Origin: Sulfurimonadaceae bacterium
Lineage (GTDB): Bacteria; Campylobacterota; Campylobacteria; Campylobacterales; Sulfurimonadaceae
NCBI GenBank assembly: GCA_041572615.1
Contig: JBFFSC010000001.1
Span: forward strand, 6,050 to 70,049
Length of the DNA: 64,000 bases
Direction: 5' to 3'
Shown: positions 1 through 64,000 of the stretch, in pieces
Numbering within the stretch: the first letter of the stretch is position 1
Layout: each line of letters starts with the position of its first letter
The notes under the pieces: generated by a model
The model's database searches: none
What the model saw: only the letters and a program-made list of their open reading frames with translations
What the model was told of the DNA's origin: nothing
Translations under genes and position numbers: made by a program

Positions 1-354
1 TTTGCGATGGTCTTGGAGCATGACAACAACATCAGAAGCATAAAGTGTGATGAAGAAGACGATGCAGTACGTTACGAAAGGCTATTGGAAGCATTGAGGG
101 ATGAGGCCAAAGAAGATAGGATAACTGCCATTGCACTGCTCTCAAATGTCACAATCCCGGACAACTTTTCACCTGCTGTATCAAGCGGCATACGTATACA
201 CATCGAAGAAAAGGCATTCCAGGCAGAGAACAAGCTCTCTGCGAGACTTCTTTATATCCCTTACCAGCTCTATAGAACCAAAGAAGACCCTACCGTTCAG
301 ATTCAACTGCACAACCCTATTCCTGTGGGAATGGCATGTGAGATCTTTATCTAG
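1..354 (+). CDS. hypothetical protein, C-terminal part (ORF open to the left edge)
   Basis: Frame 1 is open from nt 1 to TAG at 352-354. I recognise no family motif in the 115 aa shown. Confidence 0.35.
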   Translation, partial: FAMVLEHDNNIRSIKCDEEDDAVRYERLLEALRDEAKEDRITAIALLSNVTIPDNFSPAVSSGIRIHIEEKAFQAENKLSARLLYIPYQLYRTKEDPTVQIQLHNPIPVGMACEIFI

Positions 355-26451: not shown

Positions 26452-26475
26452 TAACCGACAAATTAGGACTATTAA
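26452..26475 (+). promoter_or_regulatory. copy of conserved 24-nt box (TAACCGACAAATTAGGACTATTAA) upstream of the BLUF gene
   Basis: 19/24 identical to the copy at 54573. TATACT at 26493 follows after a 17-nt spacer. 66 nt before ATG 26541. Confidence 0.4.
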
Positions 26476-26540
26476 ACCGTATAAAAAATAGATATACTAA
26501 ACAATAGAGAAATATGAACAAAGATGTATAGAGGTCTGTA

Positions 26541-30231: not shown

Positions 30232-32172
30232 GTGAAAGACAACACAACGATTTTAACTGATGCTATCTTTGACAATGTCGACCATCTACTTATCGCTACA
30301 GACACAGAAGGTGTCATCACCAAGTTCAATAAAGCAGCAGAAAGATTCCTGGGCTATCAGGCCGAAGAACTTGTCGGCAGTATGACCCCTGCACTCTTTC
30401 ACCTTGAATCTGAGGTTGTTGAACGGGCACAACTCTTCTCCGCCGAGCTGGAACAAAATGTAGAGCCGGGATTTAAGGTCTTTGTCATCAAGACAGAGCT
30501 TGGGCTTCCCAATGAATATGAATGGACCTATATCACCAAAAGCGGTGAGCACAAACCCGTTCTTCTTTCTGTCACTGCCTTACGTGACGATAATGGCAAC
30601 ATTACAGGTTATATCGGTGTTGCCAAAGATATCTCAGAAAGCAAACGCATTGCCCAGGACCTTCACCTGAGCCAAAACAGACTCAACGAAGCCCAGCGTA
30701 TCGCAAACATAGGGAGCTGGTCCCTTTCAGCCCGATCCGGCCTTTTATTATGGTCTGATCAGATCTACAAGATCTTCGAGATCGACCCCAAGCATTTCAA
30801 ACCCTCCTATGAAGGCTTTCTAAACAGTATTCATCCTGATGACGTCGAAAAGGTCAACCAGGCCTTTAGTGCTTCTCTTGAGAACAAAACCTCTTATAAC
30901 ATCGAACATCGCCTTCTTATGAAAGACGGTCGTATCAAATATGTCATCGAACGCGGTGAAACCGTCTATTCCGATACAGGAGAAGCTCTACTGACACAGG
31001 GGACGGTTCAAGACATCACTGAACTTAAACTGGTCCAACAGAGCCTGATCGAAGCGAAAGAGGCAGCCGAGAATGCCAACCGCTCAAAGAGCCGTTTTCT
31101 GGCCAATATGAGCCATGAGATACGTACACCCCTAAATGGTATTATGGGCTTTATCGAATTACTTCAAAAAGAGGAGACCGATCCCAAGAAAAAAGATTAT
31201 CTTGATATCATCCACACCTCCTCAAAGTCCCTGCTTGTCGTGATCAATGATATTCTTGATCTCAGCAAGATCGAAGACGGGAGTATGAAAATCGAGCCTA
31301 CCGACTTCGATCTTCATCAACACCTTGAACAGCTGATCACTTTTTTTAAGTCCATCAGCGACTCAAAAGAGATTGATCTGCATTTTGAGTATCCAGAAAA
31401 GCTCCATTCCCATGTATATACCGACTCCTTGCGTTTAAAACAGATCCTTTCCAACCTGATCTCCAACGCTATAAAGTTCTCACCTGAGAACTCGACAATC
31501 ACAATCGACCTAAAACGAGAAGATGACCACCTTATCATAGCCGTAAAAGATGAAGGAATAGGCATCTCTGAAGAAGCACAAAAACGTATCTTCAATCCCT
31601 TTGAACAAGCCGAAGTATCTACCACAAGGAACTATGGAGGAACCGGTTTAGGGCTGAGTATCTCAAAAAAGCTTATCGAGCTGCTTGACGGAGAGATCTA
31701 CCTTGAAAGTGAACTTGGCAAAGGAAGTACTTTTTCTTTTTCCATCAAGGCGCCTGAAATCTGCACCCTGGAAAAACATGAACACGATGACGCCGTACCT
31801 GCACTTCAAGGGCATATCCTCGTTGCAGAAGACAACAAGACAAATCAGCTTCTTCTTACCCTCCTATTGGATGAGATGGGTCTGACCTACAGCCTCGTTG
31901 AAGATGGAAAGGAGGCCGTAGAAGCATTCAAACAATGCCCAGACTACAATCTCATATTAATGGATATCAATATGCCCAATATGAACGGCATTGAGGCAAC
32001 AGAACATATACGTCAATCAAACTATCCGCATAGGAACATACCAATTATCGCCTTGACCGCCAATGTAATGAAGGAGGATATCGATCACTACCTTGAATCA
32101 GGTATGAACGCGCATCTTTCAAAACCTATTGACAGTCACCTTTTGGCACAGGTGCTGACACAATATCTATAA
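30232..32172 (+). CDS. hybrid sensor histidine kinase (PAS-PAS-HisKA-HATPase-REC)
   Basis: GTG start after AAGAGG. Two PAS/PAC units. H-box FLANMSHEIRTPLNGI, G-boxes DEGIGI and GGTGLGLSISK, and a C-terminal REC (ILVAEDNKTNQ, LILMDINMP). Confidence 0.9.
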   Translation: MKDNTTILTDAIFDNVDHLLIATDTEGVITKFNKAAERFLGYQAEELVGSMTPALFHLESEVVERAQLFSAELEQNVEPGFKVFVIKTELGLPNEYEWTYITKSGEHKPVLLSVTALRDDNGNITGYIGVAKDISESKRIAQDLHLSQNRLNEAQRIANIGSWSLSARSGLLLWSDQIYKIFEIDPKHFKPSYEGFLNSIHPDDVEKVNQAFSASLENKTSYNIEHRLLMKDGRIKYVIERGETVYSDTGEALLTQGTVQDITELKLVQQSLIEAKEAAENANRSKSRFLANMSHEIRTPLNGIMGFIELLQKEETDPKKKDYLDIIHTSSKSLLVVINDILDLSKIEDGSMKIEPTDFDLHQHLEQLITFFKSISDSKEIDLHFEYPEKLHSHVYTDSLRLKQILSNLISNAIKFSPENSTITIDLKREDDHLIIAVKDEGIGISEEAQKRIFNPFEQAEVSTTRNYGGTGLGLSISKKLIELLDGEIYLESELGKGSTFSFSIKAPEICTLEKHEHDDAVPALQGHILVAEDNKTNQLLLTLLLDEMGLTYSLVEDGKEAVEAFKQCPDYNLILMDINMPNMNGIEATEHIRQSNYPHRNIPIIALTANVMKEDIDHYLESGMNAHLSKPIDSHLLAQVLTQYL

Positions 32173-51811: not shown

Positions 51812-51840
51812 TCCAACCAACTGACATTTTTCACCTACGA
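51812..51840 (+). promoter_or_regulatory. conserved box CCAACCAACTGACATTTTTCACCTACGAA upstream of thiD
   Basis: 26/29 identical to 61863-61891. TACAAT at 51858 follows after a 17-nt spacer. The box ends 49 nt before ATG 51889. Confidence 0.55.
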
Positions 51841-51888
51841 ACCAAATGCTGTTTTTCTTACAATCGTACTATCAATCAAGGAGTCATC

Positions 51889-52671
51889 ATGAAAGTAGTG
51901 TTGAGTATTGCCGGTTCAGATTCAAGCGGAGGTGCCGGGATTCAGGCAGATCTAAAGACCTTTGAAGCCTTTGGCGTCTTTGGTACGTCAGTGATCACTG
52001 TTTTGACTGCACAGAACACAGCTGGTGTGAGTGCGATTGAGAGTGTTTCTGCCGACTTTGTACGTGCGCAGATAAAAGCCGTACTTGAAGATTTTGATGT
52101 GGCCGCGATCAAGATCGGAATGCTCTACAGCATAGATGTCATGGAGGCAGTTAAAAGCCAGATTGCCAACTGTAACTGTCCAATAGTCTTGGATCCTGTC
52201 TTTATATCCAAGGCTGGTTCACCCTTGCTTCAGGACGATGCCGTAGAAAAGATGAAAGAACTTTTTTCATATGCAACGGTGATCACACCGAACCTTTTCG
52301 AAGCAAAGGCACTTTTTGGATATGACAAAGATGATGCCGCATCTGTTGAAACGGTTAAACAACTGAATACTCCTGTACTGATTAAAAACCAGGTTATTCA
52401 AGATACGGGCCAAAAGAGAAGTGTCGACCTGCTCTATGCGGGTGATGAAGAACAATGCTTCGAAACGGCACATATCAGGACAAATAACCTTCACGGTACA
52501 GGATGCTCTTTCTCAAGTGCAATAGCTGCCAACCTTGCCTTAGGCAAAAGACTTGATGAATCGATAGAGGTCGCAAAAAGATTTGTTACCCAGTCACTCG
52601 TGCATGCACCGTCAATCGGGCACGGACCGGGACCTATCAACCACAAACAAGGAGGAAAGGATGTCGCATAA
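51889..52671 (+). CDS. thiD: hydroxymethylpyrimidine/phosphomethylpyrimidine kinase
   Basis: [26 protein letters not shown], and [12 protein letters not shown] near the C-terminus. Confidence 0.9.
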
Positions 52672-53281
52672 ACTGCAGGGACTATATGCTATTACCGATG
52701 AAACACTCACGCCTGATCACAGCGTAGTGGAGCAAGTAAAGACTGCCCTTCAAGCCGGTGCCAATATCATCCAGTACCGCAACAAGACCGCAGAAGACTC
52801 TCAGGTCGAATCTGTATGCAGGGACCTATTGAGACTCTGTCATAATCACAAGGCCATTTTTATCATCGATGACAGAGCAGATCTCGCTCATAAGATAGGG
52901 GCAGACGGTTTACACATAGGCAAAGATGACACCTCACTCTCAGATGCTAGAAAGATATTCTCTGAAGGTATCATCGGCGTATCTTGTTATGGGAGTATCC
53001 GTAAAGCTAAGGAAGCAGAAGAAGAAGGAGCCGATTATGTAGCCTTTGGTTCTTTCTTCCCCTCACCGACAAAGCCAAAATCAGGTGTTATCTCTTTAAA
53101 GGTGCTTCAGAAGGCCAAAGAAGCGTTGAATATCCCTGTATGTGCCATCGGAGGGATTAATCGTGACAATATCCATGAAGTAGCCGCATACCGGCCTGAC
53201 ATGATTAGTATTGTCAATGACATTTTCAATGGTGATATCACCCATAATATAACTCAACTCAAACAAGGAATGAAGATATGA
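52661..53281 (+). CDS. thiE: thiamine-phosphate synthase
   Basis: Start [13 protein letters not shown] follows GGAGG. IQYRNK, GADGLHIG, GGI motifs. 11-nt overlap with thiD. Confidence 0.9.
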   Translation: MSHKLQGLYAITDETLTPDHSVVEQVKTALQAGANIIQYRNKTAEDSQVESVCRDLLRLCHNHKAIFIIDDRADLAHKIGADGLHIGKDDTSLSDARKIFSEGIIGVSCYGSIRKAKEAEEEGADYVAFGSFFPSPTKPKSGVISLKVLQKAKEALNIPVCAIGGINRDNIHEVAAYRPDMISIVNDIFNGDITHNITQLKQGMKI

Positions 53282-54156
53282 AAATTAAATTAGCTATTGA
53301 ATGGTTTTTAAACCCGGATCACCTGCCATTTATCGTAGGAATACGGGAAGGTTTTTTCAAAGAGAAAGGTCTAGACCTTGAGATCATCGAACCGACAGAA
53401 CATTATGACGGTCTGGATGAGCTCTGCCAAGGCAATATACATTTTGCGACCAATGAACCCTTGCACCTGATTGAACAGTTTGATGAGAACTTTTTGACAA
53501 TGGGAACCTATTTTGAGACTAAAGGAGGTGTATTACTGAAAAAATCATCTTATGAAAAACTCATCAACGGTGACTCGATCATTGTGACTTCTCCTGTCTC
53601 AAATGAAAAGACAGACAATATCGCCTTTGAGATCATACGCCGTTTCTATGCCAAAGAAGGTGTAATGGTAAAACGTGAACAGGTCAAGTTCGTTGCAAAT
53701 GGCTTTGAACACCTTAAATATATGAAAGAAGGTGCTGATGCCGGCTGGCTTTATTTTTATAATTTCGAAGGTATAGAAGCACAACATGAAGGCATGGAAG
53801 TACTCTACCTTGATGCGGAAAACGTCGGCTTTGCAAACTTCAGTGCCCTGGACATCTTTACTAACAAAAGCTGGTATAAGGAAAACACACAAACATGCGA
53901 CCATTTTCTCGATGCAGTAAGGGAGTCGACCACATGGATGAGTAAACATCCTGATGATGCTATGCAACACTATTATGATTACACAAAAGAAGAGAAGAGC
54001 GATCTGATGGATGACATCCTCACTGCAACGATGGAATGTTTTCATTCTGATTTTAATTCACTAGCCGCAGACCAGGAACCGATACTGGAGTTTTTTACCG
54101 AGATAGGGATAACCCAACTGCCTTATAATGATTTCAAAAAGGCATTTTTGGCTTAA
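53278..54156 (+). CDS. cytoplasmic NMT1/THI5-like protein (possible HMP-P synthase or pyrimidine-binding protein)
   Basis: No signal peptide. N-terminal LNPDHLPFIVGIREGFFKEKGLDLEIIEPT resembles yeast THI5 [34 protein letters not shown]. ATGA overlap with thiE. Confidence 0.6.
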   Translation: MKIKLAIEWFLNPDHLPFIVGIREGFFKEKGLDLEIIEPTEHYDGLDELCQGNIHFATNEPLHLIEQFDENFLTMGTYFETKGGVLLKKSSYEKLINGDSIIVTSPVSNEKTDNIAFEIIRRFYAKEGVMVKREQVKFVANGFEHLKYMKEGADAGWLYFYNFEGIEAQHEGMEVLYLDAENVGFANFSALDIFTNKSWYKENTQTCDHFLDAVRESTTWMSKHPDDAMQHYYDYTKEEKSDLMDDILTATMECFHSDFNSLAADQEPILEFFTEIGITQLPYNDFKKAFLA

Positions 54157-54157
54157 T

Positions 54158-54517
54158 ATGAAAGGTTTACTTTTAGTCGCACACGGCAGCCGAAGAGATG
54201 CATCAAACAAAGAGTTTGAGACAATGGTCTCTTCTCTGAACAAAAGGCTTCATAAGGTTTATTCTAAGGTAAATACATCGTTTTTGGAGTTATCTTCACC
54301 AAGTATCGATGAAGCGCTGCATGCAATGATAGCTGAAGGTATAGACGATATACAGGTGTATCCTTTCTTTCTTAACCCCGGAAGACATGTACATCATGAT
54401 ATCCCTGAAAAGATAAAAGCATTCAAAACACTACACCCTGAAGTAAGCTTTGATATTCTGCCTCATTTTGGAAGCTCTGAACATATTATCTCCCTAATAG
54501 TAAATGATTTGACCTAA
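54158..54517 (+). CDS. small CbiX-type (sirohydrochlorin chelatase-like) protein
   Basis: MKGLLLVAHGSRRD and PFFLNPGRHVHHDIP are typical of CbiX(S). 119 aa. Confidence 0.6.
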   Translation: MKGLLLVAHGSRRDASNKEFETMVSSLNKRLHKVYSKVNTSFLELSSPSIDEALHAMIAEGIDDIQVYPFFLNPGRHVHHDIPEKIKAFKTLHPEVSFDILPHFGSSEHIISLIVNDLT

Positions 54518-54572: not shown

Positions 54573-54596
54573 GAACTGACAAATTATCACTACTAA
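54573..54596 (+). promoter_or_regulatory. copy of conserved 24-nt box (GAACTGACAAATTATCACTACTAA) upstream of lipocalin gene 1
   Basis: 16/24 identical to the 51817 copy and 19/24 to the 26452 copy. GATGAT at 54614 (17-nt spacer) or GATAAT at 54617. 41 nt before ATG 54637. Confidence 0.4.
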
Positions 54597-54636
54597 CATC
54601 CGGACACATATGCGATGATAATACCAAAGGATTCAT

Positions 54637-55618: not shown

Positions 55619-56135
55619 CACCTCACTGCACCTTGACGAGAAGTGCCATGCACAACCCCGAATTGCCGCTTTATTGACCTGTGGAAGCAATATAATGCCC
55701 CTTGCCTGGCATATGCCCGTATCCAAAGAACCATTTAGATATGCCGTCGCTATACGAAGCGAGAACCATACACATGATTTGATCAAAAAGAACAGAGAGT
55801 TTGCCCTGAATTTTTTGGATATTTCCTATCAGGATGCCTATCAGAAGTCTGGTGATATTCATGGGGGAAGTGTCGACAAGTTCGAACTCAGCGGGCTTCA
55901 TCAGAAAGATGCACTAAGTATTGAAAGCACTCTCATCGAGGAGGCTTATATGATCTATGAATGTATACTCGTTGATATCATCAGCTATGGCGATCACGAT
56001 ATATTTGTCGCTGATGTGAACCTAATCTTGAACAAAGAGACTAAAGAGGTAAAACCCACTCTGTTTTTGGGTAAAGGATATTATGATACTTTACTCGGTG
56101 ATCCTATACGACTGAAAAGGAATACTGATGAATAA
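55611..56135 (+). CDS. flavin reductase-like (FMN-binding split-barrel) protein
   Basis: [23 protein letters not shown] ... REFALNFL, typical of the flavin reductase domain. 8-nt overlap with the upstream gene. Confidence 0.7.
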
Positions 56136-57336
56136 ATACATCCCTCATGCTTTTGATTTTGATCCTGATGAACGTGGTCATTTTGGAAGGTTCGGTGGAC
56201 GTTTTGTACCGGAAACACTTATGCCTGCCCTTATTGAACTTGATGCATTTTATGCTTCCTTGCGCTTTGACCAAGATTTCTGGTCTGAAGTAAATGCCTA
56301 TTTTAAAGATTATGTCGGAAGACCTTCACCTCTATACAAAGCGCAAAGCCTATCTGATGAACTTAATGCACATATTTATCTAAAGCGTGAAGACCTTAAT
56401 CATACCGGTGCACATAAGGTGAACAATACAATCGTGCAAGGACTGCTTGCCAAAAAAATGGGCAAGACAAAGGTCATCGCTGAGACCGGAGCCGGACAAC
56501 ACGGTGTTGCTACAGCAACCATCGCTGCTTTGATGGGCCTTGAATGTGAAATCTTCATGGGAGAGAAGGATGTTGAACGGCAACAACTCAATGTCTTTCG
56601 CATGAAGCTTTTAGGCGCCAAAGTCCATGCTGTTTCATCAGGAAGCCGTACACTTAAAGATGCGATGAATGAAGCCATACGCCATTGGGTCACCAATGCA
56701 CGCGACACCTTTTACATCATCGGTACTGCAGCTGGTCCTCACCCCTACCCATTGATGGTTCGTGACTTCCAGGCCATTATCAGTTTTGAAGCAAAAGAGC
56801 AGATCCTTCAACAAGAAGGTTCCCTTCCAGACTATGTCATTGCATGTATAGGAGGAGGAAGTAATGCGCTTGGGATGTTTGCCCATTTTATCAATGAAGA
56901 ATCAACTCAATGTATTGGTATAGAAGCCGGAGGCCATGGACTTGAAAGTGGAAAGCATGGGGCCAGTCTTGCCCTTGGAAGACCAGGGATACTACATGGA
57001 CAGATGAGTTACCTTTTGCAAAGCAATGACGGCCAGATTGACGAAGCACACTCAATATCTGCAGGTCTAGACTATCCTGGAATTGGCCCTGAACATTCAT
57101 TCTTGATGGAGCAAGGAAAAGTAATTTATGATAGTATTAACGATGATGAAGCTATGGATGCATTTGTATGGTTAAGTCGTGCAGAGGGCATTGTTCCTGC
57201 TTTTGAGAGTGCCCATGCGATTGCCTATCTGAAAAAAATGCCTAGAGAGAATATTCAGAATAAAAAAATCATTATCAGCCTTTCAGGACGAGGTGACAAA
57301 GACATGATCCAAGCAATGGAGATATTGAAACTATGA
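56128..57336 (+). CDS. trpB: tryptophan synthase beta chain (TrpB1 type), with no adjacent trpA
   Basis: [45 protein letters not shown] and [10 protein letters not shown] are near-collinear with E. coli TrpB as I recall it. Confidence 0.9.
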
Positions 57337-58820: not shown

Positions 58821-58860
58821 CAATCCACCAATCCACCAATCCACCAATCGACAAATCCAC
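58821..58860 (+). repeat. tandem octamer array: CAATCCAC x3, then CAATCGAC, AAATCCAC
   Basis: Read directly: caatccac caatccac caatccac caatcgac aaatccac. Intergenic, and it overlaps the box copy at 58845. Confidence 0.9.
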
Positions 58861-58868
58861 ACTACAAA
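58845..58868 (+). promoter_or_regulatory. copy of conserved 24-nt box (CAATCGACAAATCCACACTACAAA) upstream of the small ORF/SDR operon
   Basis: 17/24 identical to the 54573 copy. TAGACT at 58886 follows after a 17-nt spacer. 47 nt before ATG 58915. Confidence 0.35.
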
Positions 58869-58914
58869 CATCCTTTATATTACTATAGACTGTGTAAAGA
58901 GTAGGAGGATGTTT

Positions 58915-61862: not shown

Positions 61863-61891
61863 CCAATCAACTGACATATTTGACCTACGAA
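61863..61891 (+). promoter_or_regulatory. conserved box CCAATCAACTGACATATTTGACCTACGAA upstream of lipocalin gene 2
   Basis: 26/29 identical to 51812-51840. TATACT at 61909 follows after a 17-nt spacer. The box ends 50 nt before ATG 61941. Confidence 0.55.
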
Positions 61892-61940: not shown

Positions 61941-62459
61941 ATGCGTATGATCTTCATTATCATGTTTTTCATATTCACTGCCTTGGCTGAGACTTTGCAA
62001 CCCGTTTCATATGTTGATTCGAAGCGCTTTAGCGGCCTATGGTATGAGATCGCACGTACTTACAACGATTATGAAAAAGATTGTGTGGCTGCGACTGTCG
62101 AATACGTCCTGGAAGACGACAATCGCTATCGCGTCAACAATCGCTGTTTTGACACGACAATGACAGGAGACCTTATACTTTATGAAGGTACAGCAGAACC
62201 TCTTGAAGGAGATTCTATGCATCAGATGGAGATGACATATTTTTGGATTTTCAGCCAAGACTACAACGTACTCTACCTGGATGAAGACTATACCACAGCC
62301 ATCATAAGCGATAAGGACTTTGAACAATTGTGGGTGATGCACAGAAAGCCGGAGATATCCCAAATCAAATTAGCAAAGTTACTTGCTCTGCTAGAGAAAA
62401 ACATGGATCTTGATAGGCTCATCTATACCCCTCAAGACCCTCAAGGAAGGTACAAATGA
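61941..62459 (+). CDS. lipocalin family protein (second Blc paralogue, no lipobox Cys)
   Basis: Signal peptide MRMIFIIMFFIFTALA. FSGLWYEIARTY lipocalin motif. Confidence 0.8.
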   Translation: MRMIFIIMFFIFTALAETLQPVSYVDSKRFSGLWYEIARTYNDYEKDCVAATVEYVLEDDNRYRVNNRCFDTTMTGDLILYEGTAEPLEGDSMHQMEMTYFWIFSQDYNVLYLDEDYTTAIISDKDFEQLWVMHRKPEISQIKLAKLLALLEKNMDLDRLIYTPQDPQGRYK

Positions 62460-63691
62460 AAATCGCGGTATTAGGTGCCGGCATCAGTGGGTTGGGCAGC
62501 GCTTACCTGCTTAGCCAAAAACATGAAGTCGATCTCTATGAGAAAGAGAGTCGTCTAGGTGGACACGCACGAACGACGATGGTCCATGAAAAAGAGAAAA
62601 GCTTTGGTGTTGACACTGGTTTTTTAGTCTTCAACCATGAGACCTATCCCCTTTTGACAAGACTCTTTGAACAACTCGATGTCAAAATAGAAAATAGTGA
62701 CATGAGTTTTGGGTTTTGGGATGAACAGAGCAATTCAGCCTATAATGGAAGCTCACTGGGCGGGATGTTCTTGCAAAAGAAAAACCTTTTTTCTCTCGCG
62801 CATTACAAGATGATCGCAGACATCATGCGCTTCAACAAAGAAGCCAACGATCATGTCGATAATAACAGCCGTGAACTTAATCAATCCCTGGGAGAGTATC
62901 TGGAATCCTATTCCGAAGTCTTTAAACAACGCTACATCTTGCCTATGGGAGCTGCAATCTGGTCAACGCCGAGTGAAAAGATGCATGACTTCCCTGCACG
63001 CACATTTTTACAGTTCTTCAAGAATCATGGCCTTCTAGGTGTAACAACACAACATCAATGGCTAACCGTAAGCGGTGGTTCGATCAATTATGTCAATGCC
63101 ATATCTCAAAAAATCTCAGGAGAGATTATACTTAACAGTCCCGTACGTTCACTCTCCCGTCACAAAGACGGTGTCACACTTCATATGAATGACGGGACGG
63201 CAAAAGAATACGACAAAGTCGTTATGGCGATGCATGCTCCTGATGCGCTGACGCTTCTAGACGATGCCACTGAAACAGAGAAAGAACTTCTCTCCTGTTT
63301 TGCCTATAAAGAGAATCAGGCAGTACTTCATAATGACACCAATGTCCTTTATCCTGACAAAAAAAGTTATGCAGCATGGAACTATAAGACCGGAGGGAAA
63401 GACAATGCCGTCACACTTTCATATTGGATCAACATCCTACAAAACCTGGTTACAGACAAAGAGTATTTTGTCTCCTTGAATGAGACGGCAACAATCAATG
63501 ATATCATCGAAGAGATCACCTACGAACACCCGCAGTTTGATGCGGATGCGATAGAGGCACAGTCACGTCATCATGAAATAGACGGTGTTATACACACCCA
63601 TTATGCAGGAGCCTATTGGCGTTACGGCTTTCATGAAGACGGACTATGGAGTGCAGAGCGTATTGCCAATAAGATGGAGTGTGCATTATGA
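62456..63691 (+). CDS. NAD/FAD-dependent oxidoreductase (amine-oxidase/desaturase-like)
   Basis: KIAVLGAGISGLGSAYLL ... LYEKESRLGGHA dinucleotide-binding motif. 4-nt overlaps on both sides. Confidence 0.8.
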   Translation: MKIAVLGAGISGLGSAYLLSQKHEVDLYEKESRLGGHARTTMVHEKEKSFGVDTGFLVFNHETYPLLTRLFEQLDVKIENSDMSFGFWDEQSNSAYNGSSLGGMFLQKKNLFSLAHYKMIADIMRFNKEANDHVDNNSRELNQSLGEYLESYSEVFKQRYILPMGAAIWSTPSEKMHDFPARTFLQFFKNHGLLGVTTQHQWLTVSGGSINYVNAISQKISGEIILNSPVRSLSRHKDGVTLHMNDGTAKEYDKVVMAMHAPDALTLLDDATETEKELLSCFAYKENQAVLHNDTNVLYPDKKSYAAWNYKTGGKDNAVTLSYWINILQNLVTDKEYFVSLNETATINDIIEEITYEHPQFDADAIEAQSRHHEIDGVIHTHYAGAYWRYGFHEDGLWSAERIANKMECAL

Positions 63692-64000
63692 GTCATAGAT
63701 TTTTTGAGGGGAGCATCTACCATAAACGTTTTCATCCAAAAACTCATGAGTTCACCTACCCTTTTTATCTTTTGGACATCAGTATCCCGTTGATAGACAA
63801 TCTAAAAAACGCCCTTTTCTCACTGGGTGGTTTCAACCTCTTTTCATTCAGAGCCACAGACCATTTTGGATCGAGTAAAGACTTCACACACAACGTCAAA
63901 GAGCTACTGGATACATTCAACCTTCAAGAAACACAAGAGATGCGGTTTATCACTTTGCCCAGAGTCTTTAATTTTGTGTTCAATCCGATCAGTGTACTGG
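63688..64000 (+). CDS. DUF1365 family protein, N-terminal part (runs off the right edge)
   Basis: My own translation: MSHRFFEGSIYHKRFHPKTHEFTYPFYLLDI...RVFNFVFNPISVL. The H.R..P..H.F.Y and FNP.S patterns are typical of DUF1365. The ATG overlaps the upstream stop (ATGA). Confidence 0.7.
   Translation, partial: MSHRFFEGSIYHKRFHPKTHEFTYPFYLLDISIPLIDNLKNALFSLGGFNLFSFRATDHFGSSKDFTHNVKELLDTFNLQETQEMRFITLPRVFNFVFNPISVL

Follow-up and report, generated by a model that had tools for sequence, protein, structure and literature searches.

LytTR response regulators bind pairs of 9-11-nt repeats, direct or inverted, that lie 11-13 nt apart and share no consensus (PMC4847170). The element described here, which we call the box, resembles the operators of this class (AgrA P2/P3, ComE, PlnC/D, YpdB, BtsR, AlgR) in being an asymmetric site of about 26-30 bp that lies upstream of or overlaps the -35 region of a weak sigma-70 promoter, and perhaps in a 21-nt internal periodicity, carried in the box by few columns. 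As in those systems, the site stands at the head of an operon that codes for the cognate LytS-type kinase and LytTR regulator, a layout that implies autoregulation. The box differs from known LytTR operators in that its blocks GACAT and CCTAC are dissimilar and form no clean repeat pair, and its binding here is only predicted. Its regulon concerns photo-oxidative stress and cofactors rather than quorum sensing, bacteriocins, pyruvate uptake or alginate, and the kinase is of a short four-helix type that is always preceded by a CrtD-like flavoprotein.

Within this class, AlgZ(FimS)/AlgR of Pseudomonas aeruginosa likewise couples a LytTR regulator to a short PF06580-type membrane kinase. The promoter-proximal block of the first box, read as its reverse complement GGTTCGTAG, shares GTTCGT with CCGTTCGTC, which we take to be the AlgR core. 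However, the gammaproteobacterial kinase/regulator pairs are 27-36% identical, occur in unrelated contexts and are not orthologous, and none of the gammaproteobacterial LytS/LytTR pairs examined had a box.

In gene content the closest parallels are with two other kinds of system. The sigmaE/ChrR (ECF11) regulons of Rhodobacter sphaeroides and other Proteobacteria also include a photolyase, a CFA-synthase homologue and an operon of the amine-oxidase/DUF1365/SDR/lipocalin type (PMC3546557). In contrast to them, the system here shows no ECF sigma factor or ChrR, has RpoD-type -10 elements and a two-component regulator, and extends to thiamine, haem, PLP and quinone genes. The MerR-type regulators LitR/CarH of Pseudomonas, Vibrio, Thermus and Bacillus control light-protective genes from an operator at the sigma-70 -35 region, and their effector sets overlap with the one here (PMC9758184; PMC5241685). 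LitR is a dark repressor, whereas the system here is more likely to be an activator. Our searches of the literature for LytTR regulators together with photolyase or light, or with Sulfurimonas or its relatives, returned nothing relevant; the effector genes are already known, and their regulatory wiring appears to be undescribed.

The box came to light as a pair of near-identical 29-mers in the window (the whole 64,000-nt stretch of DNA analysed here), one ahead of thiD and one ahead of the gene for lipocalin-2. The pair reported in the first-pass annotation is real and its second copy was correctly placed, although the first copy had been put at 51812-51840, one base short of its true position. 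A recount gave the same identity (26/29), and a search for the 29-mer with up to three mismatches found 2 matches in the window versus 0 in 100 dinucleotide-preserving shuffles. Small counting errors had entered the distances from the end of each box to the ATG, which measure 47 nt (thiD) and 49 nt (lipocalin-2) and not 49 and 50 nt. The exact 17-nt spacing to TACAAT and TATACT was confirmed, and so was the claim that the two intergenic regions do not otherwise align: in a MAFFT alignment of both, likeness is limited to the box and scattered positions around the -10. The features of the two promoters and their operons are as follows.

51813-51841, + strand: box copy 1, the 29-mer CCAACCAACTGACATTTTTCACCTACGAA upstream of thiD; its 24-nt core at 51818-51841, CAACTGACATTTTTCACCTACGAA, has the genome's top position-weight score (58.5 bits)
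51859-51864, + strand: -10 element TACAAT, exactly 17 nt past box 1
51889-54517, + strand: box-1 operon, annotated with Pfam and NCBIfam, containing thiD (51889-52671), thiE (end 53281), an NMT1/THI5-like gene (53278-54156) and a small CbiX gene (54128-54517)
61863-61891, + strand: box copy 2, the 29-mer CCAATCAACTGACATATTTGACCTACGAA upstream of lipocalin-2, starting 2 nt beyond the stop of a PEMT/ICMT-like gene; its core at 61868-61891, CAACTGACATATTTGACCTACGAA, scores 51.8 bits
61909-61914, + strand: -10 element TATACT, exactly 17 nt past box 2; the lipocalin-2 ATG is at 61941
61941-63999, + strand: box-2 operon (lipocalin-2, FAD amine-oxidase-like, DUF1365), which runs on past the window to a CFA-synthase-like gene at C1:70399-71706

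These two boxes are the best-conserved members of a set of six. The genome is a MAG of 2.03 Mb (76% complete, 43% G+C), and a position-weight scan across it gave exactly 6 sites at or above 8 bits and 0 between 8 and 20 bits. All six sites are on contig C1 and on the + strand, each precedes a + strand operon, and their consensus, or invariant core, is AAnnGACAnnTnnnnnCTAnnAA-N17-TAnnnT. The other four members are listed below.

26452-26498, + strand: weaker box TAACCGACAAATTAGGACTATTAA + N17 + TATACT, before a BLUF / YfcH-like / RudS (DUF523-DUF1722) / photolyase operon
54573-54619, + strand: weaker box GAACTGACAAATTATCACTACTAA + N17 + GATGAT, before a lipocalin-1 / START / flavin reductase / TrpB paralogue / NmrA-DUF2867 operon
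58845-58891, + strand: box CAATCGACAAATCCACACTACAAA + N17 + TAGACT, before an SDR / SnoaL / MFS_2 / PEMT-like operon
C1:72275, + strand: sixth box, 2.2 kb beyond the window, before a CrtD-like FAD oxidoreductase / LytS-type kinase / LytTR regulator operon

Two of these sites have peculiarities of their own. At the lipocalin-1 box (54573-54622), the -10 candidate at 17 nt, GATGAT, is poor, and a better one, GATAAT, lies 3 nt further on; within the regulon, this site may be weaker than the rest or tuned differently. A tandem array of the octamer CAATCCAC (58821-58860) extends into the SDR-operon box, covering its 5' half, and the 5' part of the box there reads CAATCGAC. The array might represent extra weak binding sites or a product of slippage.

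A strict pattern of 15 bases, the -10 included, was used to follow the element among other genomes. It found 44 sites in 28 of the 201 genomes of the family (the sulfur-oxidising Sulfurimonadaceae) versus 2 for a reversed control. Across 24 other families of the order (139 genomes) it found 1 site, which is the control rate. A complete system was nevertheless seen outside the family in an Arcobacter sp. MAG (L052, NYWO01000159.1), whose regulator shares 52% identity with the one described here. Its boxes stand before a RudS-photolyase-CrtD-like-kinase-regulator set and before a lipocalin-amine oxidase-DUF1365-CFA synthase set. This suggests either horizontal transfer or a distribution wider than the strict pattern shows.

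Just past the window, the operon behind the sixth box encodes a two-component system. Its LytTR response regulator (C1:74749-75450, 233 aa, PF00072 and PF04397) has BtsR and LytR as its best NCBIfam matches, both under cut-off. The receiver aspartate of this regulator falls within an FLDINMP motif, at around residue 52. The LytS-type histidine kinase (PF06580, 336 aa) has four membrane helices, and the CrtD-like FAD oxidoreductase is 473 aa long. Full-length orthologues of the regulator were found in 52/201 genomes at 51-88% identity, all other matches being to the receiver domain only. Genomes with a strict box have an orthologue in 23 of 28 cases, those without such a box in 29 of 173 (odds ratio 22.8, p = 1.5e-11, a value that is uncorrected for phylogeny and so ignores shared ancestry). 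Regulator-positive genomes without a strict box (G080, G081, G147) have boxes with one mismatch 2.5-6.6 kb upstream of the regulator and on the same strand. In at least 18 of the 24 loci examined, one of them from the Arcobacter sp. MAG, the box heads a (hemH or CbiK)-CrtD-like-kinase-regulator operon. The genes that recur in these islands by Pfam (ABC1/UbiB, UbiD, PdxH, glutathione peroxidase, ankyrin, GGDEF-EAL, BLUF) include none that binds DNA, and the LytTR regulator is the only DNA-binding protein found there.

Five box genomes lack the regulator, and four of them are likely explained. The G023 contig breaks off beyond the kinase gene, the final match on it, G122 and G082 are 61% and 84% complete, respectively, and the box site in G188 looks like chance. 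The sole unexplained exception is G025, which is 99% complete and has a good box before thiD (L008, on G025:C193), with no detectable orthologue of the kinase or the regulator.

The gene order of the islands varies in detail. At one locus (L004, G122:C182, 1-1670) a YfcH-like epimerase comes after the kinase, ahead of a box and hemH, and no regulator directly follows the kinase. In a complete genome (L032, G145:C1, 3124-7600), the place of hemH at the start of the box-headed regulator operon is taken by genes for a CbiK-type chelatase and an ankyrin-repeat protein. Together with the small CbiX in the thiD operon, this CbiK makes class II chelatase seem a recurring member of the regulon.

A conserved box, held in a fixed promoter geometry and genomically linked to a two-component system, is in our view best explained as the operator in the sigma-70 promoters of a six-operon photo-oxidative regulon, bound by an autoregulated LytTR activator. 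We give this reading as a whole a probability of roughly 0.6. Its first component, binding of the box by the LytTR regulator, is a prediction from sequence and genome context that we consider quite probable.

A competing explanation accepts the box as a real operator and assigns it to a different factor, such as a partner of BLUF or an unrecognised regulator, so that LytS/LytTR would be merely one of the regulated members. The exception in G025, with its box and no kinase or regulator orthologue, speaks for this, as does the BLUF sensor that heads one of the box operons. The internal structure of the box points both ways. With its conserved 5' extension the box spans 26-29 nt, and among 30 sites its self-similarity peaks at a 21-nt shift (0.44 versus about 0.3 typical of other shifts), a signal that involves few columns. 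It comes from AYnAA at positions -1..3 and 20..24 and takes in columns that were unused in the search, and it would suit a LytTR site. On the side of another factor, the strongest blocks, GACAT and CCTAC, do not look alike, and the main part of the box is not a clear repeat pair and shows no obvious direct repeats as in the AgrA, ComE and YpdB sites. However, the islands have no second recurrent DNA-binding gene besides the LytTR regulator, only some of them contain BLUF, and the box and the LytTR regulator co-occur, adjacent and on the same strand, across genera and in the Arcobacter MAG. We regard recognition by another factor as unlikely.

The position of the box within its promoters was examined with a box-only pattern that had no -10 in the query, run on 200 genomes of the same family. 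It gave 13 sites in 10 genomes, with 0 for the reversed control. In 12 of the 13, TAnnnT was recovered exactly 17 nt past the box, which upholds the earlier proposal that the element is placed relative to the -10; the odd site (L010) is inside a gene and looks like chance. The genes that follow the box-only sites are thiD (n = 3), thiE (n = 1), hemH, encoding ferrochelatase (n = 4), a DUF523 gene (n = 1) and other genes (n = 2). A logo of 30 unique sites reads AY.AA.cGACAtaTtt..cCTAC.AA-N17-TA.aAT. Variants of the box include GACAT versus GCCAT in genus g17.

This geometry puts the box at about -53 to -30, centred at about -41.5, in an RpoD-type (sigma-70) promoter. The last hexamer of the box, TACGAA, occupies the -35 position, and the -10 has no TG extension. 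A generic sigma-70 promoter scan did not call the box promoters, because their -35 is non-consensus and the TG extension is absent. From the same geometry, the predicted start of thiD transcription is near 51871, which leaves the ATG at 51889 with a 5' UTR of some 18 nt, and predicted leaders are about 18-20 nt. The promoters have the features of class II-like activator promoters, namely an operator at a fixed place over the -35, a -10 that can be recognised and a -35 that is poor or missing, and the combination of a non-consensus -35 with no TG extension fits an activator-dependent promoter. The centre at -41.5 is suggestive of a palindromic CRP/FNR-type site, but a hand check of the six-site alignment found no dyad symmetry and we rejected that assignment. 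At another locus (L034, G131:C7) two boxes at about 8589 (+) and 8592 (-) stand back to back, sharing their 5' ends, and serve divergent operons, so the element is also used bidirectionally there.

If the LytTR regulator does bind the box, activation would be rather likelier than repression. The alternative is that the bound regulator represses, blocking RNA polymerase at the -35 until a signal releases it. Repression would agree just as well with a box that covers the -35 position, and promoters of Campylobacterota generally have no need of a -35 element. Some LytTR regulators do repress, PlnD being an example (PMC2714321). Against repression, the box promoters have neither a -35 match nor a TG-extended -10, and the conserved stretch from -30 to -53 is relatively G+C-rich, unlike the usual A/T-rich upstream tract. 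Moreover, the regulator is encoded in a box-headed operon, a positive-feedback layout that is typical of LytTR activators (the agr, com and blp systems). On balance, repression by the LytTR regulator seems improbable.

The box was also considered as an ECF-type sigma promoter (AAC-N16-CGAA), as found in the sigmaE/ChrR singlet-oxygen regulons that control the same lipid genes elsewhere. The two strongest copies of the box read CAAC-N16-CGAA, and the genes behind them belong, in other bacteria, to the core targets of sigmaE/ChrR (PMC3546557). The BLUF, lipocalin-1, SDR and FAD-oxidoreductase copies, however, read TTAA, CTAA, CAAA and CTAA instead of CGAA, and an ECF promoter would leave TAnAAT at a fixed 17 nt without a role. 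The five 100%-complete genomes with boxes encode only RpoD (~630 aa) and FliA (~230 aa) as members of the sigma-70 family, and only FliA was seen in the genome studied here. We rejected the ECF promoter as highly improbable, since these five complete box genomes encode no ECF sigma factor and a TAnAAT held at +17 indicates RpoD.

The idea that the boxes have no regulatory meaning and were left behind by a recent segmental duplication or by a small mobile repeat (REP/MITE) can draw on the two lipocalin paralogues in the region, but it is scarcely credible. There are six copies only, each of them promoter-proximal and pointing the same way as the gene behind it, the flanks of the original pair are unalignable, and the box precedes non-homologous genes in many genera. 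Since the two intergenic regions cannot be aligned outside the box, the original pair is not a duplicated segment. Selective conservation of the element, as the first-pass annotation had it, is further borne out by its recurrence ahead of non-homologous genes, always in that promoter position, both in this genome and in 27 others of the family.

An operator for a LitR/CarH-type regulator was also considered and rejected, there being no consistent MerR gene of LitR size (~250-330 aa) in the box genomes or near the islands. In G145, G133 and G131 there is one good MerR_1 match each, in open frames of 126-145 aa that are far from the island. The LitR operator repeat is the 11-nt nAnnTnnACAn, which the box does not fit by hand check.

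The genes behind the boxes point to the likely stimulus of the proposed LytTR activator. Across genomes the wider regulon includes photolyase, RudS, BLUF, ferrochelatase, PdxH, glutathione peroxidase, UbiB, UbiD and the CFA-synthase/DUF1365/amine-oxidase/SDR/lipocalin cluster. RudS is a tRNA 4-thiouridine desulfidase (PMC11417400). The core singlet-oxygen (sigmaE/ChrR) regulon of Rhodobacter contains CFA-synthase, photolyase and RSP1091-1087-type genes (PMC3546557), and a CFA-synthase gene of Vibrio cholerae is induced by blue light (PMC5241685). Judged by gene content only, photo-oxidative stress, that is, light or singlet oxygen, is fairly likely to be the trigger. Oxygen or peroxide stress would fit many of the same genes in these microaerophiles. 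The pairing of a thiamine operon with a lipid operon, which had been noted as not obvious, is explained by a larger gene set, probably for photo-oxidative stress, that holds both.

Under the LytTR-activator reading, a stress signal would be sensed by the four-helix intramembrane LytS-type kinase; this signal could perhaps be a change in membrane lipids tied to the co-transcribed CrtD-like flavoprotein. The kinase would phosphorylate the LytTR regulator, which would then bind the box at -53 to -30 and recruit RpoD holoenzyme to promoters that have no usable -35. All six operons would be induced, the regulator's own included. Co-induction of the thiamine and lipid operons would allow photolabile cofactors to be replaced while membrane lipids are remodelled.

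The thiamine operon also called for a check on control at the RNA level. A TPP riboswitch or other RNA upstream of thiD was rejected, as no Rfam family reached its gathering score in the window. RF00059 (TPP riboswitch) had no match in this genome (G000) or in four 100%-complete relatives (G145, G151, G131 and G133), whereas control genomes did match. The predicted thiD leader of about 18 nt is, moreover, too short for a riboswitch. The gene is single-copy in this genome and lies behind the box, and thiamine genes in Sulfurimonadaceae may be controlled without a riboswitch.

A broader proposal, which we offer tentatively and hold to be somewhat doubtful, is that LytS/LytTR replaces sigmaE/ChrR or LitR as the master photo-oxidative switch of Sulfurimonadaceae, with a kinase that senses photo-oxidised or remodelled lipid and a single 24-29-nt box as the operator. 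The lipid signal would perhaps be made or used by the CrtD-like flavoprotein, whose gene always shares a transcript with that of the kinase. DNA photorepair, lipid modification of the furan/cyclopropane type and resynthesis of thiamine, PLP, haem and quinone would then be induced together. If this proposal is true, it would make the first link between a LytTR system and light stress and would place thiamine genes under a stress regulator in a lineage without a TPP riboswitch.

The well-known effectors of the light and singlet-oxygen response (photolyase, RudS and the CFA-synthase/DUF1365/amine-oxidase lipid cluster) have so far been connected with ECF sigma/anti-sigma pairs or with the MerR-type LitR. 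In these chemolithoautotrophic Campylobacterota, another, sharply defined cis-element marks the same effectors along with genes for thiamine, haem, PLP and quinone, and it travels with LytS/LytTR. If confirmed, this would be a third, non-orthologous regulatory solution to photo-oxidative stress, and its 24-29-nt operator and short regulon would be suited to studying LytTR recognition in Gram-negative bacteria. It would also help to explain how thiamine genes are controlled where the five family genomes searched show no TPP riboswitch. The box is in addition a practical marker for annotating the regulon in metagenome-assembled genomes.

Several genes in the window deserve mention in their own right. 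Directly after the photolyase operon is a PAS-PAS-HisKA-HATPase-REC hybrid kinase (30232-32172) with paralogues scattered in the genome; we rejected it as a LOV sensor because the NCRF motif is absent. The two lipocalin paralogues in the region are 31% identical. The TrpB encoded in the lipocalin-1 operon (56128-57336) is canonical (TIGR00263, 608 bits). A second TrpB, on contig C14, is 72.7% identical to the island copy, which is an extra paralogue.
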